Assembly (NCBI GenBank): GCA_016182875.1
Contig: JACPFQ010000004.1
Coordinates: 99,203-163,202 of the forward strand
Reading direction: 5' to 3'
Origin: Candidatus Doudnabacteria bacterium
GTDB taxonomy: Bacteria; Patescibacteriota; Doudnabacteria; UBA920; O2-02-FULL-48-8
Length of the DNA: 64,000 nt
Position numbers and translations under genes: made by a program. The notes below the pieces were generated by a model, which was given only the letters and a program-made list of their open reading frames with translations, did no database searches and had not been told where the DNA came from. This document shows positions 4,863-29,219 of this stretch, piece by piece. Every line of letters starts with the position of its first letter. The stretch's first letter is position 1.

Positions 4863-7319
4863 ATGCCGAAGGAAATTGAAAATAGCCAAGCCATAGGCCA
4901 AATCAACCAAAGGCCCATTGAGCGGGAAATGGAAGAGTCTTACCTAGACTATGCCATGAGTGTGATTGTCATGCGGGCCCTTCCCGACGTCCGAGACGGC
5001 TTAAAGCCGGTGCACAGAAGAATACTCTATGCCATGTCGGAGCTGGGGTTGCGTTCCAGCGCCAAATTTAGGAAATCGGCCGCAGTGGTGGGAGAAGTTT
5101 TGGCCAAATACCATCCGCACGGCGACGTGGCGGTTTATGACTCACTCGTCCGGCTCGCGCAGGATTTCGCGATGCGCTATCCGCTCGTCGACGGGCAGGG
5201 CAATTTTGGTTCCATGGATGGAGACGCTCCCGCCGCCATGCGCTATACCGAAGCGCGGATAACCCGGCTGGCAGAGGAAATGCTCGTTGATTTGGAAAAA
5301 GAAACGGTTGACTGGATGGACAATTACGACGCTACCCGGAAAGAACCGAAGGTTATGCCGGCCAAACTGCCCCAGCTTTTGCTAAACGGCACTCTGGGAA
5401 TCGCGGTGGGCATGGCCACCGATATTCCCCCCCATAACTTGGGCGAAATCGCGGATGCCGCCGTCAAACTCATCGACGACCCCAAGGCGACCACCGAAGA
5501 TTTATTGGAACATGTCAAAGGCCCTGACTTTCCAACCGGCGGCTTCATATATGACTGGAACGGGATCAAACAAATTTACGCCACTGGCAAGGGGCCTATT
5601 GTCATGCGCGGCCGGACAGAAATAATCGAAGAGAAGGGCCAGCATAAAATCATCATCAATGAAATTCCCTACCGCGTGAACAAAGCCACGCTTTTGGAGC
5701 AGTTTGCGGGATTAGTTAAGGAGAAAAAAGTGGAGGGCATAAAAGATTTGCGGGACGAATCGGATAAAGACGGGGTAAGAATAGTAATCGAATTGAAAAA
5801 AGAAGCCTTGCCCAACAAAATTCTAAACCAGCTTTTTAAATACTCGAGCCTCCAGGAAACATTTCACGTCAACATGCTCGCGCTCGTCGACGGCATTGAG
5901 CCGCGGGTGCTTAACTTAAAAAACATTTTGGAGTATTACATCATCCACCGCCTGGAAGTCGTGCGCAGGCGGTCAGAATTCGACTTGGCCCGGGCGCGGG
6001 ACCGCGCGCACATCCTGGAGGGTTTAAAAAAGGCTTTAGACCATATCGACGCCGTAATCACGACAATCAAGAAGTCCAACACCACCGAAGAGGCGCATGC
6101 GGCGTTGATGAGCAGATTTAAATTAAGCGACAAGCAAGCTACGGCCATCCTTTTGATGCAGCTGCGGGCCCTGGCCGGACTCGAGCGGAAAAAAATCGAT
6201 GACGAACTAAAGGAAAAAAAGCAGCAAATCGAAGAGCTGCTAAGCCTGCTTGGCTCCGAGAAAAAGATGCGGGCTGTGATTAAGAACGAACTTAGCGAGC
6301 TGAAGACAAAATACGGAAACGACCGCAAAACGACCTTGATAAAAACACCCATCGGTGAATTCAAGGTCGAGGACCTTATTCCCGAAGAACAAACCATCGT
6401 GATTATCACCAAATCCGGATACGTTAAGCGCGTCCCGCCGCAAACATATAAAACCCAAGGCCGGGGAGGCAAGGGTGTAATCGGCATGACCACGAAAGAA
6501 GAAGACGTGGTCGAGTGGCTGATTACGACCAACACTCACGACGATATTCTGTTCTTCACGAACAAGGGCCGTGTGTTCCAAACCAAAGTCTATGAACTGC
6601 CGGAAGCGTCGAGAGTAGCGCGCGGACAGGCTTTGGTCAATTTCCTGGAGCTTCCCACGGACGAAACTGTCCGCAGTGTGCTGACCATTTCCAAAAAAAC
6701 TCCTCTGAAGTTTCTGGTCTTGGCGACCAGGCAAGGCCTAATCAAAAAAACCCCGATTGAAGAATTTGCAAAAGTCCGACGGTCAGGCTTAATTGCGATC
6801 AAATTAAAAGCCGGGGACGAACTGCGATTCGTCAAATATTCCACTGGCGTTGACGAAATCATCCTTTCGACCATCAACGGCCAAGCCATTCGCTTCGACG
6901 AAAAGGACGTGCGGAGCATGGGCCGGGCGACTTCGGGCGTGCGCGGCATCAGGCTCCGAAAGGGAGACGAGCTAATCAGCCTCGACCTCATTTCCAAAAA
7001 AGATGAGCCGAAAAACCTGCAACTTTTGATAGTCACGGAAAATGGCTTGGGCAAAAAAACCGACTTGTCACTGTACAAAAAACAGCGGCGGGGAGGTTCG
7101 GGAATCAAGACTTTGAAGGTCACGCCCAAAACCGGCAAGATCGAGTCCATGCATGTCGTCAATAAAACCGAAGAGCACGACCTCGTGGTCTTGTCCAAAA
7201 ATGGACAGGCGCTTCGCACTCCAATTGCCAAAATCTCAACGTTAGGCCGCGCCACGCAAGGTGTGCGCATCATGACCTTGGAAGACAAAGATAAGGTTGC
7301 TTCAACAACGCTGATATAA
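4863..7319 (+). CDS. gyrA: DNA gyrase subunit A
   Basis: [27 protein letters not shown] and the downstream topoisomerase IIA motifs; 818 aa. Confidence 0.95.
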
Positions 7320-7326
7320 AAAGAAA

Positions 7327-7360
7327 GACCCCGGACCAAGTCCGGGGTGGCTTTATTTTT
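7327..7360 (+). terminator. Rho-independent terminator after gyrA
   Basis: CCCCGGAC-caag-TCCGGGG followed by a T-rich tract. Confidence 0.65.
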
Positions 7361-7404
7361 GCGAAAAAAATGAAGCAGTTTTAAGACTTGCTTAGGTCTG
7401 TAGC

Positions 7405-7671
7405 TCAGACGATAACCTTGTCCCAAGAGATCAGAACGGCTCGGATGAGAATCAGCATGAGGCGAGCGTCTGGAAGTTCGTCCGCGGTCACGCTGTTAGC
7501 CACTTCATCTAAATCTTCGTTTACCATCTGAATCGCGCAGTCAGTCCTGCCAGCCTCCAGTTCGTCTGCCACCTTGTCATACATTGCGGAATGGTGAGCG
7601 AACACCATGTTCTTGGCTTTTCTTCTAAAATAGGCAACGACTTGATCGTGAGCCATCAGCTCTTTTACCAT
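7405..7671 (-). CDS. Hypothetical small protein (88 aa)
   Basis: Good SD (AAGGAGGG) 3-4 nt upstream of the ATG on the minus strand; no recognisable family. Confidence 0.45.
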   Translation of the reverse strand: MVKELMAHDQVVAYFRRKAKNMVFAHHSAMYDKVADELEAGRTDCAIQMVNEDLDEVANSVTADELPDARLMLILIRAVLISWDKVIV

Positions 7672-7752
7672 AGACCCTCCTTAATTGTTGACCTGAAAGT
7701 ATATCCTAAAATTGCCCAATTGTCTATACTTTAATGACAGAAATAGCCTAGA

Positions 7753-7781
7753 TTGACTGAATTACTAGGATTTGCTAGAAT
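7753..7781 (+). promoter_or_regulatory. Candidate sigma70 promoter TTGACT-17-TAGAAT for the TrmB-family regulator gene
   Basis: TTGACT (7753-7758), a 17-nt spacer, then TAGAAT (7776-7781); the ATG is at 7794. Confidence 0.35.
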
Positions 7782-7793
7782 AATTGTCAGGAA

Positions 7794-8588
7794 ATGACTT
7801 ACAACTTTATGCATAAAATTGACCAAATCCTTAAAACTCTCGGCCTTAGCGAGAATGAAACCAAGGTCTTTTTGGGTGCTCTTAAAACTGGCCAGGCCAC
7901 TGTGAGCAGAATCGCTTATGAGGCTGGGATTGCTAGAACCTACGCTTATGAACTTGTAGAACAACTGAAAACCAAAGGGCTGCTTGCTGAAGTGGAAGAG
8001 AAGGGAAAAAAGAAATTAGAGGCTTTGGATTTTGAAGGATTAATGGCATACATTGCAAGAAAGAAACGCGAAACTGAAAAATTGGAAAAAGAACTCGAAA
8101 GAGCTACTTCAGAGTTCCATGCCTTACGCACATATATACCGCAAAAAACTAAGGTCAGATTTTTTGAAGGCGTAGCGGGAATCAAAAGCATCAATTCGGA
8201 AATACGAAAAGACTTGGAAAAACTTTCAAAACCTTACCAATTCTACGTCGTGTTCTCTGCAGACCGGATGGAAGAAGTTTTGCCGGGTTGGATCGAACAC
8301 AACGAGCACATTTATTACGAACCGCATATGAAAAAATTCGCCATTATCAGCGAAACGCCGATGCTTCCTAAATTCTTAGGTCAAGTTGAAAAGCATCAGC
8401 AGATAAATTTCAGATTCAAGATTTGGCCAAAAGAAAAAAATGAGTTTCCAACTGACACGCTTTGCTGGCAAAACAAAATTGCTATATTGGACATGAAAGG
8501 GCATCCATCTGGTATAATCATCGAGAATAAAGCAGTAGTCGAAACATTCATTATGTGGTTTAGTCAGATGTGGGATAGCCTAAAATAA
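7794..8588 (+). CDS. TrmB-family HTH transcriptional regulator
   Basis: N-terminal wHTH (LGLSENETKVFLGALKTGQATVSRIAYEAGIARTYAYELVEQLKTKGLL) characteristic of the TrmB family. Confidence 0.7.
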   Translation: MTYNFMHKIDQILKTLGLSENETKVFLGALKTGQATVSRIAYEAGIARTYAYELVEQLKTKGLLAEVEEKGKKKLEALDFEGLMAYIARKKRETEKLEKELERATSEFHALRTYIPQKTKVRFFEGVAGIKSINSEIRKDLEKLSKPYQFYVVFSADRMEEVLPGWIEHNEHIYYEPHMKKFAIISETPMLPKFLGQVEKHQQINFRFKIWPKEKNEFPTDTLCWQNKIAILDMKGHPSGIIIENKAVVETFIMWFSQMWDSLK

Positions 8589-8595
8589 TAGAATC

Positions 8596-9261
8596 ATGCT
8601 TTACATTGTCGCCACGCCAATTGGAAATCTATCGGATATAACTCTTCGGGCAATAGAAGTTCTCAAGAGTTCCGATTTTATTATTGCCGAAAATCCTGCG
8701 CATAGCGCCAAGCTTCTGCAACATTATGCGATTCCAAAAAAGAAAACCATCCAATTCGCCGAGCATAATGAAAAAAAGGTTCTTTCAACCTTAATCCCAC
8801 AACTTAAATCCTTAAACGGTGCTCTAGTCACAGATGCTGGCACCCCGGGAATCTCTGACCCTGGCTTCCGGCTGGTGCGGGCTTGCGTGGAAGCGGGAAT
8901 CAAAGTAGCACCCATACCGGGCCCATCCGCCGCAATGGCGGCACTTAGCGCTTCGGGACTGCCCACTGACCGCTTTTTATTTGTCGGATTTTTGCCCCGC
9001 AAGGAAACGGCGCTAATAAAAATGGCCTCATTGGCAAAACAAACCGAAAGCACCCTCATCGGATATGACTCCCCGTTTCGAATTGTTAAAACCGTAGAAC
9101 TCCTCGCCAAGCGCTTCCCGCAATCCAATATGGTGATTGCGAGGGAGCTGACAAAAATCCATGAAGAATTTTTGAGAGGCCGTGCAACTGACGTATTGGC
9201 AGAACTGAAAAGCAAAGCTAGTATAAAGGGCGAAATAACCTTGCTTATCTCGTTTAAATAA
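8596..9261 (+). CDS. rsmI: 16S rRNA (cytidine1402-2'-O)-methyltransferase
   Basis: LYIVATPIGNLSDITLRA...GTPGISDPG tetrapyrrole-methylase fold typical of RsmI. Confidence 0.85.
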   Translation: MLYIVATPIGNLSDITLRAIEVLKSSDFIIAENPAHSAKLLQHYAIPKKKTIQFAEHNEKKVLSTLIPQLKSLNGALVTDAGTPGISDPGFRLVRACVEAGIKVAPIPGPSAAMAALSASGLPTDRFLFVGFLPRKETALIKMASLAKQTESTLIGYDSPFRIVKTVELLAKRFPQSNMVIARELTKIHEEFLRGRATDVLAELKSKASIKGEITLLISFK

Positions 9262-10002
9262 ATGAGCGGGCACAGCAAATGGGCGCAAATCAAACGGCAA
9301 AAAGCAGTCACCGACGCCAAACGCGGCTCGCTGTTTACGAAGCTGGCCAAGAACATCACGGTGGCTGTGCGCGAAGGCGGGGGAACGGACCCTTCATTCA
9401 ACTTTAAGTTGCGCATGGCCATTGAGCAGGCGCGCGACGCCGCCATGCCCAACGAAAACATTGACCGCGCCGTCAAACGCGGCAGTGGAGAAGGAAAAGA
9501 GGCGATTGAGCAAGTGGCTTACGAAGGCTATGGGCCAGGAGGGTCGGCATTTATCGTGGAGGCGGTCACAGACAACAAAAACCGAACGACTGCCAATGTC
9601 CGAAGTATTTTTGACAAGCATGGCGGACGATTAGGCGAACAAGGATCCGTTGGTTGGATGTTCGAATCCAAAGGGCAGATCCTGATTGAAAACTCCGCCT
9701 TCGCTAAAGCTTCGGCGGACAAGCAGCCTGGCAATCTCGCACTCGAGCTGATTGACCAAGGGGTCGAGGACGTAAAAGAAACTGAAAACGGCTTGGAAGT
9801 TTATACGCTTCCCCTTGACTTGGAAAAAACCAAGAAATTCATTGAGGACAAAAAAATCAAAATCTTAAGCTCTGAGCTAATCATGCGCCCGGCGCAAAAC
9901 CTGGAAGTCGCAGAACAGGATAAGAAAAAAGTCCAGAATCTAATCAATGCCCTGCAAGACGATGATGACGTAGTAAACGTCCATAGCAACGTTAATTTGT
10001 AA
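9262..10002 (+). CDS. yebC: YebC/PmpR-family probable transcriptional regulator
   Basis: MSGHSKWAQIKRQK...GGTDPSFNFKLR signature. Confidence 0.9.
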   Translation: MSGHSKWAQIKRQKAVTDAKRGSLFTKLAKNITVAVREGGGTDPSFNFKLRMAIEQARDAAMPNENIDRAVKRGSGEGKEAIEQVAYEGYGPGGSAFIVEAVTDNKNRTTANVRSIFDKHGGRLGEQGSVGWMFESKGQILIENSAFAKASADKQPGNLALELIDQGVEDVKETENGLEVYTLPLDLEKTKKFIEDKKIKILSSELIMRPAQNLEVAEQDKKKVQNLINALQDDDDVVNVHSNVNL

Positions 10003-10086
10003 TTTTAAATTATCAATTTTAAATATAATTTTTATTATTTAAATATTTTATTTAAAATTTAAAACTATAAATTTAAAATTTTTCTC
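10003..10086. other. Almost pure A+T spacer (~84 bp) with TTTAAA/AAATTTAAAA repeats between yebC and ruvC
   Basis: Only three non-A/T bases across the tract; repeated ttaaat/aatttaaaa units. Confidence 0.5.
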
Positions 10087-10563
10087 ATGATTATTCTAGG
10101 AATTGACCCGGGCATTGGCCGCACCGGCTACGCCTTCCTGCAAAAAACAGGCGTAAAAATTACGCTGCTTGAAAGCGGCTGCATCACTACCAAGCCCGGC
10201 GGGCAGGAAGCCCACCGCCTGGCTGAAATAAAAAAAGACCTGGGGGCCTTAATCAGAAAACGGAAGCCTGATGCTCTGGCGGTTGAGTCTTTGTTTTTTG
10301 CTGCGAACACCAAAACAGCCATGAGCGTTGGGCAAGCCAAGGGAGTAATATTGCTTGCCGCGGCTGAGTCTAAACTGAAAATAGTGGAACTGACCCCCTT
10401 GCAGGTCAAAATGTCGGCCACCGGCTACGGCAAAGCTGACAAAACCCAGGTTCAGCGCATGGTGGCGAAACTTTTGAACCTAAAAAAAATTCCCAAGCCA
10501 GACGACGCCGCAGATGCGTGCGCCATAGCTTGGGCGGGGATAGGCCAGCGGACTACTGGCTGA
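10087..10563 (+). CDS. ruvC: Holliday junction resolvase RuvC
   Basis: MIILGIDPGIGRTGYAF...; RuvC fold and acidic catalytic residues. Confidence 0.9.
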   Translation: MIILGIDPGIGRTGYAFLQKTGVKITLLESGCITTKPGGQEAHRLAEIKKDLGALIRKRKPDALAVESLFFAANTKTAMSVGQAKGVILLAAAESKLKIVELTPLQVKMSATGYGKADKTQVQRMVAKLLNLKKIPKPDDAADACAIAWAGIGQRTTG

Positions 10564-10577
10564 AGTCGCGTAGTCCT

Positions 10578-10826
10578 TCAAGGTTCGCGGCGCGCATGAA
10601 CAGAAAAGTCCTGGGGCCTCTCCGCTACTTCGCGCACTGCCGCAGGAGAAGGCTCAATGCCGCCATGCGGCATCACCAGTCCAGTCCTGTCCCGTTCACT
10701 CGCTTCGTAATCGGCAAACGCCGAGTCGATTCGCCCTTTGAGGCTGAGCTTGTATGCGCCGACTAGATGGCCGGGCAGATCATCCACTGCCTGCAACACT
10801 CTCTGCTTGAGTTCCTCGTAGTTCAT
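10578..10826 (-). CDS. Hypothetical small protein (82 aa) in a GC-rich islet; second gene of a translationally coupled pair
   Basis: ATGA overlap with the upstream gene; SD GAGGAGGG 3 nt before the ATG; local G+C clearly above flanks. Confidence 0.4.
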   Translation of the reverse strand: MNYEELKQRVLQAVDDLPGHLVGAYKLSLKGRIDSAFADYEASERDRTGLVMPHGGIEPSPAAVREVAERPQDFSVHARREP

Positions 10827-11059
10827 ATACCCTCCTCACTTTTTCCTAATGAGCCGGCTGCGGGCGGAGCGGCTTCGGCGCCACACGCCTCGTCGATGAT
10901 CTGCCTGGCATCGTCGCGCTCGTTGAGCATGAACCTCATCCCGCGCAGCGTCAAACCCCCGTCCTTTCCGCGGGATCCCTTGACGAACTCCGCAATCACC
11001 TCTTCCGGGACCTTGCGCCGCTGCAGAGCCGCCGTGAACCGCCCAATGCTGGGATTCAT
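10823..11059 (-). CDS. Hypothetical small basic protein (78 aa from MNPSIG); first gene of the coupled pair
   Basis: SD AAGGAGGAA 4 nt upstream of ATG at 11059; the track ORF extends to 11134 without an RBS. Confidence 0.4.
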   Translation of the reverse strand: MNPSIGRFTAALQRRKVPEEVIAEFVKGSRGKDGGLTLRGMRFMLNERDDARQIIDEACGAEAAPPAAGSLGKSEEGI

Positions 11060-22046: not shown

Positions 22047-22141
22047 TTATTTTTCTAAAAATTAGACAAATCAAAAGAGCGAGGCCGACCCATACGGGGT
22101 CAAACCTCGCCCTCTCGTCCGGTCGAATGACCGGAACGTGT

Positions 22142-23884
22142 CTATCTGTCTTCCTCCTCCCTTTCGTTATCGAGCTCCATGTGAAGGCCTTGTGAGACCC
22201 TCAACATGAATTCGCGGCGCTCGTTCGGCTTGCCGCCGAAGAACTTAAACCTTCTCTCGACCTTCTTGGGTTCGTGGGCCACCACGTGATCCGCGGTCAT
22301 CATATTGATGACCTTCTGTTCCGCCTCAAGCCCGTCGACATGCTGAGCGAGCGCGGTTACCGCACTGCGGGCTTCACCCGTGACCCGCTCGACGGCAGCG
22401 ATGCGGTCCATCATGGACTGCCGCAGCTCGGCACCGTACTTGGTAACGACTTCCGTGGCCTGCGCCCGCGCCGCTGTAGTGACCCGCGCCTCGAGCCCGT
22501 CGAGCCCACTGTACTGGATCCTCAGGGCAGCGAGCTGCTGGCCCTGCGCCTGAACTTGCCGACGGAGCGCGGTGATGTCAGCGCTTGGCTGCGGCTGGGT
22601 GACCTGCTTCTGCACCGCCTCGATGCGCTGCTGCAGTCGGTAACCCATGGCGTTGGTCTGGTTATCCATGACTGTCACGTATTTGTCGGAGACGATTGTT
22701 CGGCCGTCCTGGCAGGTGACACCGACCTTGGTAGCTACCTTCCGAGCGTTGACCGGGTCGATGTTGACCGTGCCCACCACTTGCGTGGGTGAAGCGCTCG
22801 TCACGGTCATGCTGACACCGCGCGTGATATTCACCGCCGTCGGGTTTCCGGTGCAGAGGTTGCTGCCCGACAGGGTCAGCATCTGCGGTACCGGGTGGTC
22901 CACGACGATGGTGTCCGGTGATATCGAGGTGATCTGTCCGGCGGCCTGTGCGAACGCTGCGTTCGCGTAGCCGCCAAACAGCAGCGCCAGGATGATCACG
23001 GGAACCACAGGAGCCGGAGCCGCGGGAACGGCGGGCTGAGCCGAGACTTCCGCCGAGTTCGGTCCCTCGCCAGACCCGTAGTACGCGCTCACGACGTAGA
23101 AGTATTGGGTGCCGTTCGTGAGCCCCGCTGCGTCGGTGTAGGTCGTCGCATTGGCCGTGCCGACGATTGTGTACGGGCCGCCGGCAGTCGTGGCGCGTTT
23201 GACCGTGTAGAACACAGCGCCTGTGATTGCCGCCCAGTTGAGGACGACCTGAGCGTTCCCTGGCGTTGCCGCAAGCCCTGTGGGAGCAGCAGGTCTGTGT
23301 GCTTCCTGAGCGCGCCGACGGACTTCGGCGTCGCGGTCCTCCGGTTGTGCAGGACCGCGCCGCCGTAAGAACCAGACGGCAATGATGAGCACGAGCAGTC
23401 CCACACCAGCCCAGACGAACGGGGCCAAGTTGATGGCCGCTGGCGGACAGCCGGTGGTCAGAACGGGCGTTCCCTGCGGGGTGTCCTTGCACTGGTCGAC
23501 GTTGTCCGCGACCTTGTCGCCGTCCGAGTCAGTGGCGGCCGGCGGCGGTTCCTGCGCCTTGTCTGCCGCCTGCTGCTGTTCTTGCGAACAGCCGTTGCGG
23601 AAGATGGGCACGCCTTGCGGGGTGTTGGCGCACTGGTCGTCGCTGTTCGGGATGCCGTCGCGGTCTGCATCCGCCACCGGGGTTGCCGGTTGCGGAGTTG
23701 GCGTTGGCGCGGGAGCCGCGGGCTGGCCCTGAGTGGCCGGTGGTGCCTGCGGCGCGGGCGCGGGTTGCGGAGTCGGCGGTTGCGCAGTCGCAGCCTCGGG
23801 CTCCTGTGGCACGACCGGAATCTGCGCGAACGCGCTGGCGCTGAGCGCCAGCATTGCGAGCACGAAAACGAACATTCTTATCAT
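22142..23884 (-). CDS. High-GC secreted/membrane surface protein. Order: signal peptide, Pro-rich linker, two TSP3-like Ca-binding repeats, TM helix, FN3-like domain, second signal-peptide-like segment, Cys-containing beta domain, long coiled coil
   Basis: I prefer ATG at 23884 (MIRMFVFVLAMLALSASAFAQ) with SD AGGAGGG 3 nt upstream over the track start at 24106. Repeats DADRDGIPNSDDQC and DSDGDKVADNVDQC. FN3-like segment NAQVVLNWAAITGAVFYTVKR...GTQYFYVVSAYY. Confidence 0.55.
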   Translation of the reverse strand: MIRMFVFVLAMLALSASAFAQIPVVPQEPEAATAQPPTPQPAPAPQAPPATQGQPAAPAPTPTPQPATPVADADRDGIPNSDDQCANTPQGVPIFRNGCSQEQQQAADKAQEPPPAATDSDGDKVADNVDQCKDTPQGTPVLTTGCPPAAINLAPFVWAGVGLLVLIIAVWFLRRRGPAQPEDRDAEVRRRAQEAHRPAAPTGLAATPGNAQVVLNWAAITGAVFYTVKRATTAGGPYTIVGTANATTYTDAAGLTNGTQYFYVVSAYYGSGEGPNSAEVSAQPAVPAAPAPVVPVIILALLFGGYANAAFAQAAGQITSISPDTIVVDHPVPQMLTLSGSNLCTGNPTAVNITRGVSMTVTSASPTQVVGTVNIDPVNARKVATKVGVTCQDGRTIVSDKYVTVMDNQTNAMGYRLQQRIEAVQKQVTQPQPSADITALRRQVQAQGQQLAALRIQYSGLDGLEARVTTAARAQATEVVTKYGAELRQSMMDRIAAVERVTGEARSAVTALAQHVDGLEAEQKVINMMTADHVVAHEPKKVERRFKFFGGKPNERREFMLRVSQGLHMELDNEREEEDR

Positions 23885-24133
23885 CACACCCTCCTGTGAG
23901 ATGTGAAAGTTGGCCTCGCGGCCAGTTGAAACGAAACGCTCTGACGGCGTTTGGCCGCGAGCCAGTGCGTGAACTCTAGTAGCACTGCTTTTATGTCTGA
24001 AATTTATCCTGATGTAAATCAGGATCAGGCACAAAAGTAATCCTACTAAAATGGGGAGGAGCGAGGCAGTCTTGGTAGACCAGCCTCGCCCCACTCCTTC
24101 TTGCATCTCAGCGCTTGCGCGCTGAGTTTCCTC

Positions 24134-25960
24134 CTATCTGTTGTCTTCCTCCGGTCCGCCGTTGGGTGGCGCACCGTTCCGGGTCTCGCACGGGGTGGCC
24201 AGACCGAGCGCCTCGGCGACTGCTTGCGACGCCGTCTTGCGCTGGTTGGGCTGTCCGCGTCTGAGGAACCTGCCGCCAACGCGGTCAGGCTCGTCGTACA
24301 CGACATGCTGCATCGCAATGCAGGTGCCGGTCTCGACGTTGCCCATCCTGCCTTGCAGGTTGTTGACGTACCCGGCCTGGGTTGTCAGGGTCTTCGCGAG
24401 CTCCCCGGCGTAGCTAAGCGTCTGGTCAGCAACGCTGCGCGTCGCCTTGCCTGCCTCTTCGGCTGCGGCAATGCGCGACACCATGCGCTCCTCGAGGGTC
24501 TGGAGGTCGCTGAGGACATCCGCACGCCGCGCGAAGGGAGCCCATGATGCCTGGAGAAGCTCGCCAGCTTTCGCGTGCGTCGGCTGGGCGGAGTAGTCCA
24601 GGTAGCGCTTGTTCCCCTCTTCCCGCCCGTAGACCTGCTGGAACTTCTCCTGCAGGTAGTGTGAGAAACGCGGGTCGCGTCCGAACCGCTCGGCCGTGAT
24701 GTCGAGCACGGTCGCCGATTCCTGGCTGATGATGCGGACGACCGAGTTGCCCGACGCGATGTCGCCTGCGTCGGTGTTCACCACGAACGCCGTGGTCCCC
24801 GGCATGGCAGTCGCGTCTGCCTGGAGCTTGCTGATGATGGTGTTGCCCTTCATCACAATCTCCGTAGTGGTGGCCACACCGGTGCCGGCGTTGATGCCCG
24901 TGACCTTGCCGAGCTTGGCGTTGCGCGGGCAGGCCATGGTGATGGTCACGTCCGCGGCGTTGCCGCCCTGCACCAGGTATCCGTTCTGCACACTGACAGA
25001 ACGGACGGTGCACGTCGGAACTGCAGGGGCCGCGGGAGCGGCGGGCTGACCCTGAGCAGGCACCTGTGCGGCTGCCGGCTGCGGCGCTGCCGGCGGGGCC
25101 GGGGCAGCCGCACCGGGAGCGGCCGGCGCCGTGGTGACGGGTGGGGTCGGCTGCTGGGCGAGGGCGCTGTTGGCGCCGAGCCCGAGCAGGATGGCGATGA
25201 CGATGCTTCTCATGACAGTTCCTCCGAGTTTCCGGTTGATGTTGATGCCGAACCCGATGACGAGTCCGACGAGAATCACGAACCCGACGGCCCCGCCGAT
25301 GACGATGTACCGCAGCTTCTGATCGGTCCGCCGCGTGTCCTGGCGGGCGAGTAGCGCGTTGTTGGACGCCTTGATCGAGTACTGCCGGTCCATCCACGAG
25401 TTGTCCGCCGACGAGGCGATTGCCTTCTCGATTCGTCCGATGAGCGAGGCTTCGACGTCGTTCAGGCGGTGCTCGACGTCAGTAGGCGACGCGTTGTACG
25501 GCGCGACCTTGGCGATGTAGGTTCGGGTCGCTTCGAGAGGCGGTTGCGACGAGTCGGTGACCTTGACCGTGACCGTGTAGTCATCGCCTGGGATTTCTTC
25601 GCCACGCGATGAATACAGGTAGGCCTGACTCTTGCTCGGCAACCAGACATCGAGAATGTCTCCGTTCTTGATCTCGTCGACGATCTCCCACTTGTAGGGC
25701 TCGGTCCCGCCGCGCGCCGCCAGGTTGAACTCCTTGTAGCGGCCGGATTCGAACGCGATGGTCGTGGGTTCGACGATTGTCAACGAACCGGTTGCTGTCG
25801 CGGGCGGCTGCTGGGTCGAACCCGTCGCGGGCGGCGCCTGCTGAGTCGAAGTACCGGGCTGGCGAATCGTCGCGGTCTGCGCGCCGAGCGGCACCAGGTT
25901 CAAGAGGAACCCGAGCAGCAAAATCGCTGCGCAGATGAGGTACTGAGTCAACTTCTTCAT
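24134..25960 (-). CDS. High-GC surface protein, paralogous architecture to 22142..23884. Order: signal peptide, Thr/Pro-rich linker, Ig-like domain, TM helix, second signal peptide (with internal RBS + ATG at 25213), Pro-rich linker, Cys-containing beta domain, coiled coil
   Basis: SD AAGGGAGAG before ATG at 25960. GGTEPYKWEIV...DDYTVTVKVTD resembles bacterial putative-Ig domains. Internal GGAGGA-6nt-ATG (M250, MRSIVIAILLGLGANSALAQQ) is in frame. Confidence 0.55.
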   Translation of the reverse strand: MKKLTQYLICAAILLLGFLLNLVPLGAQTATIRQPGTSTQQAPPATGSTQQPPATATGSLTIVEPTTIAFESGRYKEFNLAARGGTEPYKWEIVDEIKNGDILDVWLPSKSQAYLYSSRGEEIPGDDYTVTVKVTDSSQPPLEATRTYIAKVAPYNASPTDVEHRLNDVEASLIGRIEKAIASSADNSWMDRQYSIKASNNALLARQDTRRTDQKLRYIVIGGAVGFVILVGLVIGFGININRKLGGTVMRSIVIAILLGLGANSALAQQPTPPVTTAPAAPGAAAPAPPAAPQPAAAQVPAQGQPAAPAAPAVPTCTVRSVSVQNGYLVQGGNAADVTITMACPRNAKLGKVTGINAGTGVATTTEIVMKGNTIISKLQADATAMPGTTAFVVNTDAGDIASGNSVVRIISQESATVLDITAERFGRDPRFSHYLQEKFQQVYGREEGNKRYLDYSAQPTHAKAGELLQASWAPFARRADVLSDLQTLEERMVSRIAAAEEAGKATRSVADQTLSYAGELAKTLTTQAGYVNNLQGRMGNVETGTCIAMQHVVYDEPDRVGGRFLRRGQPNQRKTASQAVAEALGLATPCETRNGAPPNGGPEEDNR

Positions 25961-25989: not shown

Positions 25990-26226
25990 TTATGGTTCAA
26001 CGACAGTCACGTTGACTGCCATCAGTACTGCGTCGAGGTCGAACGTGGCCTGCTTGCCGCGGATTCGTCCGCGCGGCACGTGGTCGTCCCGAATCTCGAA
26101 CTTGTCTCCGACGTGGTCGGGGCCCGTGAGGACTCTCACCTTCCAGACCATCCTGCTAGGGTTGGTTGGGGAAGGATTGAAGCCCACGACATAGCCGGTA
26201 TACGCCGGTGACCCTCTGATCGTCAA
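25990..26226 (-). CDS. Small hypothetical protein (78 aa, TTG start) leading the high-GC minus-strand operon
   Basis: SD-like AGAGAGG upstream of TTG; same high G+C; 30 nt upstream of the next gene. Confidence 0.35.
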   Translation of the reverse strand: MTIRGSPAYTGYVVGFNPSPTNPSRMVWKVRVLTGPDHVGDKFEIRDDHVPRGRIRGKQATFDLDAVLMAVNVTVVEP

Positions 26227-26551
26227 AACGCACCTCTCTTTCTGAACAAATGCTGGTTGCGCCGCCGATACTTCCTAATTTTTAAGGCTTAAGAAACACG
26301 GGCGGCGCAACCAAAACTGAAACAAAATACACTATGGGATTTTAAAGAACGAACCGAATATGATAGCAAATTTTGGCACTTTTGTCAACCCCGACGCGCA
26401 AGCGGTCGGGGCTCCGACCGTAGCGTCGGAGTGCTCATGGTATTTTAGGCTAATTTTAGCCAAAAGCTGGCGCTAGGCTTGATTTTTTGCTTTAATACTA
26501 GTACAATTTAGCGTTCGTAAACCGCACTTTTAATTTTCCCAGGAGGGAGAA

Positions 26552-28138
26552 ATGATGTTTGCACAGATTTTTGTCGTCGTGGCGATTCTGGCTTCGGCCG
26601 GCGTCGCTTCCGCGCAAACGGTCTTTACTCCTTCCCTAAGAATTCCTGGGATTGGAGTAGAGCGAAAGAACATCAGCGGCGCGGTCCTGGACGATCGCAT
26701 CCGCAAGATAATTCTTTCACGGCAGTTCTGGCTCTTGCGGCAGGAATGCGCCAAGGATGCACCCAAGCGGCTGTTCGACAACTATTGGCGAATCATTGAG
26801 CCGGTGGCGGCGATTGAGCCCAGGCTTGATCCGTACATCATCGGAGCGCTGATTACTCTCGAAAGCTGCGTCGTTGAGAAAGCCGACAACGGGTTTGGTC
26901 CAGTTGGACTTTGCCAGATCGATATCGCGTCGGGCAAGGACCTCGGCATGAAGGTTCATGTTGAGCGGCGGTTCCGGTTGGTGCCGAGAAAAAATAGCCG
27001 CGGACAGATCCTCAAGGACAGGCGTGGAAGAGCGCTCGCTCGGCGCGTGTACTACTGGTATACCTATCCTGACGACGAGCGATGGGATCCAGCGAAGTGC
27101 ATCATGGGCATGCGCAATCGTCTGCTGCGCAGCTACAACGCCTACGGTTCGATGGATGCAACGCTCGCCGAGTACCACATGGGGCCAACGCGCATGAATC
27201 GTCTACTCTCGCTCTATACGGGTCAAAACGTGGTCAGGAATCCGACCAAAAAGGGCGAGGTCGCGGCCAAAGAAGTCATCGCGAAGCGGCAATTGCGCTA
27301 CGCGAAGATCTTCTTCGACAACACTCCGAGCTGGCGGCGCAGCGTCTGGCTTTACCTCAAGCGACTGCCTGACGACTCGGAAACGTACTACTTCAAAGAA
27401 GCCATGTGGGAAGGACTGCTTCGGTTTTACCATGACCCGCGGTACGGCGGCGGACCCGCGGCGTACGAACGACTGCAAGCCCGATACAGCGGGGCCTCTA
27501 GCCCAATGTGGTCGTTCTTCACGGAGGAGGAGCGTCAGCAGTATATGATCATGACCGTTGAGGCACTGGCCAAGGCGTACGATCCGCCCAGGCCTGGCGA
27601 GGGCGCGCGGCTCGTCCCGTTGCCTCAAGACCCGGCGTTCTTTGGGTTCAGGCCGAGACTTGAGGGGTCATCGCCGATTGGGGCGAAAGCGCTGAAACCG
27701 CAAGACAGACCATACTACATCGGGTCTGAAGCTTCAACGCTCGGCGCGCTCGTCTACATTTCTTACGAGCTTAGGCGGCTGACGGGGGCTGGGTTTCGGA
27801 TTTTGGAGACCAACTCGCTCGTCCGAGACAACGATTATCAGTTGCGTTTAAGAACTGATAACGTGAATGCGCGCACCAGCCTGCCCACGCACGTGATGGC
27901 CAAGGCCTTCGATCTTCCCTACAACTGGATGAGTCCGCAACTGCGGGAGAACTTGGAGTTCCTCCTGCAGGACCTGGCGTATGACGGCAAGCTGACATTC
28001 AGCCCCGAGTCAGGGAGCCAGCATACCGACCATGTCGTTCCTCATCCCGACGCGGAAGAGTTCTTCGACAAGGTCTACGCTGGAGCCGAACGTCAGCTGG
28101 CGGCGCGAAATGCCGCTCGTCGTGCAAACACCCAATAA
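26552..28138 (+). CDS. Secreted putative peptidoglycan hydrolase: signal peptide + lytic-transglycosylase (SLT)-like domain + C-terminal domain with an H-x6-D ... HxxH metal-site-like pattern (peptidase-like)
   Basis: Signal peptide MMFAQIFVVVAILASAGVASAQ. ITLESCVV...GFGPVGLCQI matches the SLT ES...GLMQ pattern. C-terminal SLPTHVMAKAFD and HTDHVVPH. SD AGGAGGGAG before the ATG. Confidence 0.5.
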   Translation: MMFAQIFVVVAILASAGVASAQTVFTPSLRIPGIGVERKNISGAVLDDRIRKIILSRQFWLLRQECAKDAPKRLFDNYWRIIEPVAAIEPRLDPYIIGALITLESCVVEKADNGFGPVGLCQIDIASGKDLGMKVHVERRFRLVPRKNSRGQILKDRRGRALARRVYYWYTYPDDERWDPAKCIMGMRNRLLRSYNAYGSMDATLAEYHMGPTRMNRLLSLYTGQNVVRNPTKKGEVAAKEVIAKRQLRYAKIFFDNTPSWRRSVWLYLKRLPDDSETYYFKEAMWEGLLRFYHDPRYGGGPAAYERLQARYSGASSPMWSFFTEEERQQYMIMTVEALAKAYDPPRPGEGARLVPLPQDPAFFGFRPRLEGSSPIGAKALKPQDRPYYIGSEASTLGALVYISYELRRLTGAGFRILETNSLVRDNDYQLRLRTDNVNARTSLPTHVMAKAFDLPYNWMSPQLRENLEFLLQDLAYDGKLTFSPESGSQHTDHVVPHPDAEEFFDKVYAGAERQLAARNAARRANTQ

Positions 28139-28791: not shown

Positions 28792-28796
28792 GATAG

Positions 28797-28868
28797 AATT
28801 TTGAATGATTAATTTTGAATTTTGATTCAAATTCGAATTTCAGAAATTAGAATATTCATTCGAAATTC
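28797..28868 (-). repeat. Copy 1 of a ~75-90-bp AT-rich promoter/leader cassette ending at the ATG of the downstream gene
   Basis: aattttgaatgattaattttgaattttgattcaaattcgaatttcagaaattagaatattcattcgaaatt; near-identical to copies 2 and 3. Confidence 0.6.
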
Positions 28869-29128: not shown

Positions 29129-29219
29129 GAATTTTGAATGATTAATTTTGAATTTTGATTCAAATTCGAATTTCAGAAATTAGAATATTCATTCGAAATT
29201 CTAAAATCGAAATTCAAAA
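29129..29219 (-). repeat. Copy 2 of the AT-rich promoter/leader cassette (between the ruvB stop and the small membrane-protein gene)
   Basis: gaattttgaatgattaattttgaattttgattcaaattcgaatttcagaaattagaatattcattcgaaattctaaaatcgaaatt... Confidence 0.6.

Follow-up and report, generated by a model that had tools for sequence, protein, structure and literature searches.

A probable two-part envelope protein with an internal signal-peptide-like segment, encoded in a hypervariable high-GC locus of Candidatus Doudnabacteria

Loci of hypervariable content and atypical GC that keep a fixed chromosomal site and a conserved JUMPstart leader are familiar from O-antigen and capsule clusters, and single open reading frames (ORFs) carrying an internal signal peptide are exemplified by the FbcH cytochrome b-c1 precursor of Bradyrhizobium. 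Here we describe protein A, a protein of 580 amino acids (aa) encoded on the minus strand at 22142..23884 of a 64-kb stretch of DNA (64,000 nucleotides, hereafter the window) from a metagenome-assembled genome (MAG) of Candidatus Doudnabacteria. With the bacterial TSP3-repeat anchors (OmpA-like, NF053612) it shares two D-x-D-x-D-G-x-x-D-x-x-D-x-C...T-P-x-G...G-C repeats beside a membrane attachment, but it has neither a lipobox nor the OmpA_C peptidoglycan-binding domain, and its repeats lie N-terminal to a transmembrane (TM) helix. Its FN3 domain is 50-66% identical over ~85-95 residues to the FN3 linkers of glycoside hydrolases (GH44 and similar; PDB 3mpc), yet it has no catalytic or carbohydrate-binding partner and is preceded by a stop-transfer helix and followed by an internal signal peptide. 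Its IPT/TIG domain shows only 15-25% identity to those of described systems (plexin, Met IPT, the Ral-binding domain of Sec5, SGBP-B of Bacteroides), and is followed, unlike these, by a helical module without known counterpart. The F-plasmid TraG/TraG* resembles it in that one ORF holds an internal signal-peptide-like segment directing the C-terminal domain across the membrane (PMC7555446); however, there is no sequence similarity to TraG, the present family has internal translation starts and a naturally split version, and cleavage is here a prediction. Protein A is a mosaic bacterial envelope protein that joins familiar modules to one orphan module in an unusual tandem-export architecture.

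The reading that we favour, with slightly better than even confidence, is that A, the product of a hypervariable surface locus of Doudnabacteria, is a two-part envelope protein exported by the Sec pathway. We infer its topology, cleavage, oligomerisation and role as follows. The N-terminal signal peptide would be cleaved; the first TM helix (TM1) would hold the Pro/Thr-rich arm and the pair of Ca-binding TSP3 repeats, stabilised by disulfides, outside the membrane, while the Arg-rich segment and the FN3 domain would remain on the cytoplasmic side. The second hydrophobic segment, which is built like a cleavable signal peptide, would re-initiate export of the conserved C-terminal module; signal peptidase I (SPase I) would probably free this module on the outer face, where it may oligomerise via its helices and stay with the anchored half or with the wall. 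The surface location proposed by the first-pass annotation of this DNA is plausible, and most likely A would serve an episymbiotic bacterium as an adhesin or a structure of the cell surface, and would be subject to diversifying selection. The modules of A and the feature that follows it are given below; the linker, the acidic tail and the terminator are read directly from the sequence.

22142..23884, minus strand: protein A, 580 aa, open frame, with GGAGG 5 nt 5' of the ATG
23825..23884, minus strand: N-terminal signal peptide, residues 1-20, ending SASAFA/Q (hydropathy; the slash marks the AxA/Q cleavage site predicted by the -3/-1 rule)
23672..23824, minus strand: Pro/Thr/Ala/Gln-rich linker, residues 21-71
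23588..23671, minus strand: TSP3-type Ca-binding repeat 1, residues 72-99, Cys pair C85/C99 (motif, Pfam TSP_3, NCBIfam PA1041 repeat region, orthologue in locus L008)
23447..23530, minus strand: TSP3-type Ca-binding repeat 2, residues 119-146, Cys pair C132/C146 (same basis as repeat 1)
23360..23428, minus strand: TM1, stop-transfer anchor of ~21 hydrophobic residues, residues ~153-175 (hydropathy 2.42; helix in the model)
23297..23359, minus strand: Arg-rich juxtamembrane segment, residues 176-196, predicted cytoplasmic (sequence; positive-inside rule)
23030..23296, minus strand: FN3 domain, residues 197-285, between TM1 and the internal signal peptide (PDB 3mpc; bacterial FN3 matches; missing in the L008 orthologue)
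22946..23029, minus strand: internal signal-peptide-like segment, residues 286-313, VVPVIILALLFGGYANAAFA/Q, ending ANAAFA/Q (hydropathy; present in every family member)
22667..22942, minus strand: IPT/TIG-type Ig-like domain, residues 315-406, with C344 and C391
22274..22660, minus strand: helical region, partly heptad-like, residues 409-537 (low-confidence helices; heptad test)
22214..22288, minus strand: family signature HVVAHEPKKVERRFKFFGGKPNERR, residues 533-557 (common to B, P0133, P0134 and P0137)
22145..22171, minus strand: acidic C-terminal tail ...DNEREEEDR
22073..22134, minus strand: probable terminator, two hairpins then a T-run after the stop codon of A (absent from the strict scan list)

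The longest alternative reading of the frame starts at 24106 and gives 654 aa; the start at 23884 is preferred because GGAGG precedes it by 5 nt and a canonical signal peptide begins there. Three independent Logan assemblies encode an identical protein (P0001) and share its junction with recF; one of them (L001, 10.4 kb) reproduces the entire neighbourhood from the PH-domain gene to dnaA, and another (L003) keeps the junction of A with the convergent gene that occupies the position of recF. The host is an uncultured, ultra-small groundwater bacterium of the candidate phyla radiation (CPR/Patescibacteria), in whose MAG the genes adjoining A are annotated as hypothetical proteins. The products of flanking genes (DnaA, RecF, RuvB, GyrA and RpoC) are identical to entries from a Candidatus Doudnabacteria MAG.

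The domain order that had been proposed for A from its letters alone is largely borne out. The acidic motif DxDxDGxxDxxDxC is present at residues 72-85 and 119-132 (repeat 1, DADRDGIPNSDDQCANTPQG, residues 72-91; repeat 2, DSDGDKVADNVDQCKDTPQG, residues 119-138) with a single substitution in each, N80 for D and K124 for G, and both repeats run on to a second Cys (C99, C146) in the bacterial extended form ...C-x-x-T-P-x-G-x-P-(V/I)-x-x-x-G-C. Support from profile libraries is consistent and below threshold: Pfam TSP_3 (PF02412) matches two stretches of the N-terminal part of A with 22.7 bits (E 8e-5) and the full protein with 18.3 bits, both under the gathering cut-off of 25, and the repeat region of the NCBIfam PA1041-anchor (NF053612) matches two stretches at E 5.9e-9, with 36 bits against a cut-off of 250. 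The hydropathy peak at residues ~153-175 is followed by RRRGPAQPEDRDAEVRRRAQEAHR. Homologue searches with full-length A are dominated by the FN3 domain, which matches Pfam FN3 (PF00041) at E 1e-4 (22.9 bits, cut-off 25) over profile positions 2-83 of 84 and the solved Fn3-like protein of C. thermocellum, PDB 3mpc, at E 3e-13; >100 bacterial FN3 proteins match A over this segment alone, most of them GH44-type hydrolases of Acidobacteria, Planctomycetes and Verrucomicrobia. The second signal-like segment combines a short hydrophobic core with small residues at -3 and -1, as internal signal peptides do, and the Cys-containing beta domain has the IPT/TIG beta-sandwich fold. Pfam TIG (PF01833) has no match in A, and its sole match (E 0.015-0.04) is in the relative P0136. 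The ~200 aa of heptad-like sequence claimed for the C-terminal part hold up in part: a helical prediction covers ~170 aa (residues ~409-579, several helices with breaks), at low confidence (pLDDT ~35-60), but only ~100 aa (~432-533) score above the 95th percentile of shuffled sequences in a crude heptad test. The single-sequence AlphaFold2 model of the whole protein has a mean pLDDT of 48 and was used for helix positions only.

One part of the earlier description is not supported. The layout had been called eukaryote-like; however, the TSP3 repeats belong to the bacterial OmpA/PA1041-anchor type, the nearest relatives of the FN3 domain are bacterial glycoside hydrolase linkers, the IPT/TIG fold is also common in bacterial surface glycan-binding proteins, and the host is a CPR bacterium. 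Nor does the FN3 domain belong to a conserved layout: it is missing from the orthologue in L008 and is predicted to be cytoplasmic by the positive-inside rule. The statement that the whole protein fits no known bacterial family is upheld, as Pfam, NCBIfam, PHROG and PADLOC leave the conserved C-terminal module uncovered and sequence and profile searches of the PDB give nothing beyond FN3 matches, with no entry for the helical module, for protein B or for s78. These four libraries likewise hold nothing for s78 and protein B, the two genes upstream of A, or for the helical module. Pfam and NCBIfam show no SLH domain or sorting tag in A, LPxTG is absent, and the protein ends in a hydrophilic, acidic stretch; Pfam gives no OmpA match, and the signal peptide is of the SPase I type (AFA/Q), not a lipoprotein signal. 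Weak matches to NPV_P10, RVT_N, GltJ, Cas3, SpoIIIAH and others were judged to be coiled-coil or low-complexity noise.

The C-terminal half of A (Ig-like domain, helices and the motif HVVxxEPxKVxxxFxxxGGxPNxRR) defines an orphan family that is small, undescribed and restricted to the CPR. A HMMER profile of the two C-terminal modules (A and B), run against all 1.84 billion cluster representatives, finds only P0133, P0134, P0136 and P0137 besides A and B, and no homologue outside the CPR; a further match, P0135, was rejected as a spurious repeat protein. Two more members are known only from loci that were fetched, and all members come from CPR MAGs. A scan of one genome per GTDB species returns two loci, L009, a Doudnabacteria groundwater MAG that carries P0134, and L010, a MAG labelled Saccharibacteria. 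JGI metagenome contigs (two scans) and IMG/VR yield no relative of either the C-terminal module or s78, and 50,697 phage records and 72,556 plasmids yield none of the family. The phage tail fibre or S-layer family that could have accounted for A finds no support: the PHROG match covers FN3 only, and tblastn of phage records, IMG/VR and BFVD give Ig-domain matches or nothing. Searches of the literature on internal signal peptides, fbcH and Doudnabacteria find no account of the family.

The two-part plan of A is best seen by comparison with its neighbour, protein B, and with the relatives at other loci.

24134..25960, minus strand: protein B, 608 aa, remote paralogue of A with the same two-part plan
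25211..25225, minus strand: GGAGG-7 nt-ATG inside B, where its internal signal peptide begins (same layout in P0134 and P0137; after a stop codon in L007)

The paralogy of A and B, suspected from the first, escapes BLASTP and is significant by shuffling (z = 7.5 for the C-terminal halves, z = 9.4 for the tail). Their C-terminal halves align colinearly and share the tail motif HVVxxEPxxVxxRFxxxGxPNxR, and the acidic tail noted in both (EEEDR in A, EEDNR in B) has further counterparts in P0134 (EKEEDQ) and P0137 (KKEDKK). B consists of a signal peptide, an ectodomain, a TM helix, a short basic loop, a second signal-like segment, a Pro/Ala linker, an Ig-like domain, helices, the motif and the EEDNR tail. 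Every family member has a first signal peptide, a variable ectodomain, a TM anchor, a positively charged loop (12 to ~120 residues between the anchor and the internal segment), an internal signal-like segment and the conserved module. The ectodomain is of the TSP3 type in A and the A-like gene of L008, Ig-like with GGxxPY in B, P0134 and P0137, and made of charged helices in P0136 and the L010 member; the latter, of 567 aa, has the loop of ~120 residues, which is of low complexity (Glu/Arg-, Pro/Gln- and Gly/Ala-rich). In the internal segments, 8-14 hydrophobic residues lead to a Gly/Pro turn and, in seven of eight members, to AxA/Q; the TM anchors, by contrast, have 21-22 hydrophobic residues. 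Their cleavage-like ends (ALA/QQ, ASA/QT, SFA/QP, ANA/QT, VHA/QV and AFA/QA, with LTA/K in L010 as the exception) resemble the signal peptides at the N-termini of these proteins and of the SLT protein encoded in the same locus. As a separate observation, the Pro/Ala-linker coding stretches of A and B (22946-23042, 23700-23729 and 25023-25052; repeat families D3 and D5) reach 87% DNA identity over 30 nt, a likeness that may be due to low-complexity convergence or be a trace of recombination.

In L007 the two halves are separate adjacent genes: a gene of 303 aa stops just past the TM anchor, and 36 nt downstream a second gene, P0133 (365 aa), begins with AGGAG-6 nt-ATG and opens with the signal peptide MKKLMLIVVVLGILVGFGTVYA/QQ. 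The two halves of the fused proteins are therefore equivalent to two separate genes. Signs of the same division persist in the fused B-type genes. B, P0134 and P0137 have AGGAG or GGAGG 7-8 nt 5' of an in-frame ATG or GTG, exactly at the boundary of the internal segment, and the peptides that run across this Shine-Dalgarno (SD) sequence differ among the three genes (KLGGTV, EKRRTN and REGDDP). Among the 3,938 codons of seven family genes there are five combinations of SD and start codon, four of which fall exactly on module boundaries (three at the internal segment, one in P0136 at the boundary between a fused s78 and the first signal peptide); the fifth, a GTG at codon 494 of B, lies off the boundaries and is chance-like. 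As SD and start codon are kept at the boundary, the B-type genes are best described as run-on fusions that retain an internal initiation site. No such combination is found in A, in its L008 orthologue, at the second boundary of P0136 or in L010, and the internal segment of A has neither SD nor start codon; the C-terminal module of A could therefore be exported only via the internal segment of the full-length chain.

Several points weigh against the two-part, cleaved form of A. Its export, cleavage and surface location are all deduced rather than seen. The internal SPase I site of F-plasmid TraG was long assumed to release TraG*, yet the C-terminal domain appears to need a membrane anchor (PMC7555446); an AxA site is therefore no proof of cleavage, and an uncleaved hairpin is the main rival. 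The internal segment of A lacks the positively charged n-region found in most relatives, and A has no internal start codon. A folded FN3 domain on the cytoplasmic side would be unusual. Oligomerisation is a conjecture from helices of the low model confidence given above, and adhesion is argued solely from domain types, variability and the CPR lifestyle. Finally, the SLT gene lies beside the family in three loci only (the window, L007 and L008), being absent from L009 and L004 and unseen in L006 and L010.

In this main rival, possible and clearly the less likely of the two readings, A is an uncleaved polytopic membrane protein, in which the second segment is a plain TM helix, the TSP3 and Ig-helical parts both lie outside, and a TM hairpin leaves FN3 in the cytoplasm. 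The missing internal start and basic n-region in A agree with this, as do the fused state kept in seven of eight members and the precedent of TraG, whose C-terminal domain can need its anchor (PMC7555446). However, hydrophobic cores of just 8-14 residues followed by Gly/Pro and AxA/Q are not what TM1, with its 21-22 residues, would lead one to expect of a second TM helix, and the module is made as an ordinary secreted preprotein in L007, while B-type genes keep SD and start codon at that very point.

The loop between the two hydrophobic segments differs between strains. The alignment of A with a partial A-type orthologue in L008 covers the first signal peptide, both TSP3 repeats with all four Cys, TM1 and the basic loop, and then the internal signal segment (VVPVIxLALL) and the Ig-like domain with both Cys; where A has FN3, the orthologue has a Lys-rich loop of ~35 residues. 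This comparison shows the FN3 domain of A to be a strain-specific insertion, recently captured into the loop that separates TM1 from the internal signal peptide. The positive-inside rule places this loop in the cytoplasm, so that the domain is a recent capture at what would be an unusual site, and not part of a conserved adhesive array.

The genes for A and B belong to an island of constant position, with the PH-domain gene next to ruvB on one side and recF-dnaN on the other, the order ruvB, PH gene, island, recF, dnaN being kept. Its content is SLT, s78, B and A in the window, SLT, s78, a B-type and an A-type gene in L008, SLT and a split B-type gene in L007, and a single B-type gene in L009 and L004. 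Two further island genes are present in the window.

26552..28138, plus strand: divergent secreted SLT lytic transglycosylase, 528 aa, with a C-terminal DUF5715-like region, in the same high-GC island
25990..26226, minus strand: s78, orphan ORF of 78 aa, first gene of the operon, without family or PDB match

Pfam SLT is above cut-off in the window protein and in its L007 and L008 homologues, and DUF5715 is sub-threshold and recurrent; the motifs H-x6-D and H-x-x-H presumably recall LAS/VanY-type peptidases. Coiled-coil regulators of cell-wall hydrolases are known in EnvC and PcsB. By analogy, A might be a scaffold or regulator of cell-wall remodelling whose helical module controls or positions the secreted SLT/DUF5715 hydrolase, and the SLT gene indeed shares the island, its composition and the divergent promoter region in the window, L007 and L008. 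We consider this rather improbable: the family member of L009 and L004 exists without an SLT gene, those of L010 and L006 have other neighbours, and no similarity of sequence or fold to EnvC, PcsB or LytM proteins is found.

The island stands out in composition. A, B, s78 and SLT have the four highest values of GC at third codon positions (GC3) among the 45 long ORFs examined in the window (0.70-0.83, against 0.55 +/- 0.07 with a maximum of 0.65 in the other 41), and their Lys/Arg ratio is 0.44-0.64 against 1.65, with Arg preferred over Lys and much Gly, Ala and Pro. The contrast recurs in L004, L006, L007 and L008. It also stands out in divergence, with flanking proteins 66-91% identical between loci and island proteins 25-46%, as follows.

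RuvB: 90-91% identity between loci
PH-domain protein: 81-86%
DnaN: 78-85%
RecF: 66%
SLT protein: 36-46%
B: 28-38%
A: 25-38%

Since the island proteins are so divergent, synonymous sites must be saturated, and the high GC3 would therefore be actively maintained and not the fading relic of one transfer. Selection, biased gene conversion or the exchange of cassettes drawn from a GC-rich pool may sustain it. There is no integrase, tRNA target or flanking direct repeat at the island. At its fixed site between recF and ruvB, the locus acts like a surface-protein cassette of hypervariable content and distinct composition.

These data bear on whether the island is the cargo of a mobile element, prophage or conjugative system from a high-GC donor, unrelated to the biology of Doudnabacteria. 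A strongly foreign composition, an FN3 domain most like those of Acidobacteria and Planctomycetes, and the frequency of SLT enzymes in phages and type IV secretion systems (with a weak PHROG endolysin match here) speak for such an origin. Against it are the lack of mobility features just given, of phage, plasmid or IMG/VR relatives and of any homologue beyond the CPR among the representatives searched, as well as the occupation of one chromosomal site in divergent genomes by proteins of 25-46% identity with high GC3 at every locus; the fixed site, divergence and GC3 together argue for long residence or within-lineage cassette exchange over one recent import, and we hold this origin to be quite unlikely. 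Least credible by far is a eukaryote-like adhesion protein or an assembly chimera of a high-GC organism with a CPR contig, since, despite the fame of TSP3, FN3 and Ig as metazoan adhesion modules and the abrupt GC jump at the island borders, all modules match bacterial versions best and the junctions with recF and the PH-domain gene recur in independent assemblies and related genomes. The prophage, plasmid, chimera and eukaryotic-origin readings are thus contradicted.

With O-antigen and capsule loci the island shares atypical composition, conserved flanks, divergent coding content and a conserved promoter and leader, but it encodes proteins, its GC lies above that of the genome, and no antiterminator is known. 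The regulatory DNA is listed here.

26360..26388, minus strand: promoter TTGACA-17-TATCAT, 11 of 12 consensus matches, extended -10 (conserved spacer)
26254..26313, minus strand: long, GC-rich leader hairpin in the 5' untranslated region of s78 (folding z = -3.85)
23885..24133, minus strand: structured B-A intergenic region of ~250 nt, with terminator-like hairpins and a long stem just 5' of the ribosome-binding site (RBS) of A (folding z = -7.7)

The coding sequence diverges rapidly while the promoter and leaders are almost invariant. The operon promoter, TTGACAAAAGTGCCAAAATTTGCTATCAT, occurs once in the window and is nearly identical, spacer included, in L008 (1418-1430), L007 (8958-8970) and L006 (~1440-1470), and recognisable in L009 and L010, although the proteins that it drives are merely 28-55% identical. 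Its spacer, GCCAAAATTTGC, is a near-palindrome and may be an operator. The leader hairpin is kept in L007, where the upper stem differs and a G-C pair is replaced by a compensatory A-U pair, and in L009, where the loop has an insert of ~120 nt; the hairpin may serve as an mRNA stabiliser or as a regulatory element. Between the window and L008 (3666-3918) the B-A intergenic region keeps 80% identity, although the proteins of the flanking genes are only 25-38% identical; it contains a GCAA-tetraloop hairpin, a terminator-like hairpin with one compensatory pair and, just upstream of the RBS of A, an invariant stem of ~12 bp that encloses a small hairpin. Rfam has no family in the leaders or the B-A intergenic region.

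A wider interpretation, speculative and on balance doubtful, would see the recF-ruvB island as a CPR-specific surface cassette that makes two exported products from one frame by means of an internal signal peptide (with a nested start in the B-type), owes its sustained hypervariability and high GC to biased gene conversion or the exchange of cassettes, with promoter and structured leaders frozen, and supplies a variable attachment apparatus for host recognition, with s78 and the leader RNAs as a dedicated regulatory circuit. The CPR makes up a large share of bacterial diversity, and its members are mostly thought to live attached to other cells, with surface proteins that are almost wholly not understood. 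The locus offers a lineage-specific envelope family with a testable export mechanism (internal signal peptide, split version and nested starts), a clear case of recent domain capture, FN3 in a predicted cytoplasmic loop, and a compact hypervariable, compositionally deviant protein cassette with frozen regulatory DNA that invites comparison with polysaccharide antigen loci. Architecture and locus behaviour are unexpected and testable, and the family is very small: should a surface or attachment role be true, it would open a way to study how an uncultured phylum recognises its hosts; otherwise A would be a lineage-restricted orphan of modest interest.

The small gene s78 heads the operon in four loci (in the window, at 1583-1837 in L008, at 6083-6370 in L010 and at 1545-1800 in L006) with products of 78-95 aa that lack a signal peptide and match neither a known family nor a PDB entry. 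The L006 copy is joined in frame to the membrane protein, with SD and ATG kept at the junction. The L010 operon (6083-10909) consists of s78, a polytopic protein of 489 aa, a single-pass protein of 369 aa and, last, the family member; its two middle genes have no Pfam match. Outside the operon, a perfect 73-nt AT-rich direct repeat with promoter-like hexamers (28796-28868 and 29129-29201) lies between the PH-domain gene and ruvB, and its two copies bracket a small minus-strand ORF for a membrane protein of 74 aa that is homologous to L007 5857-6081.

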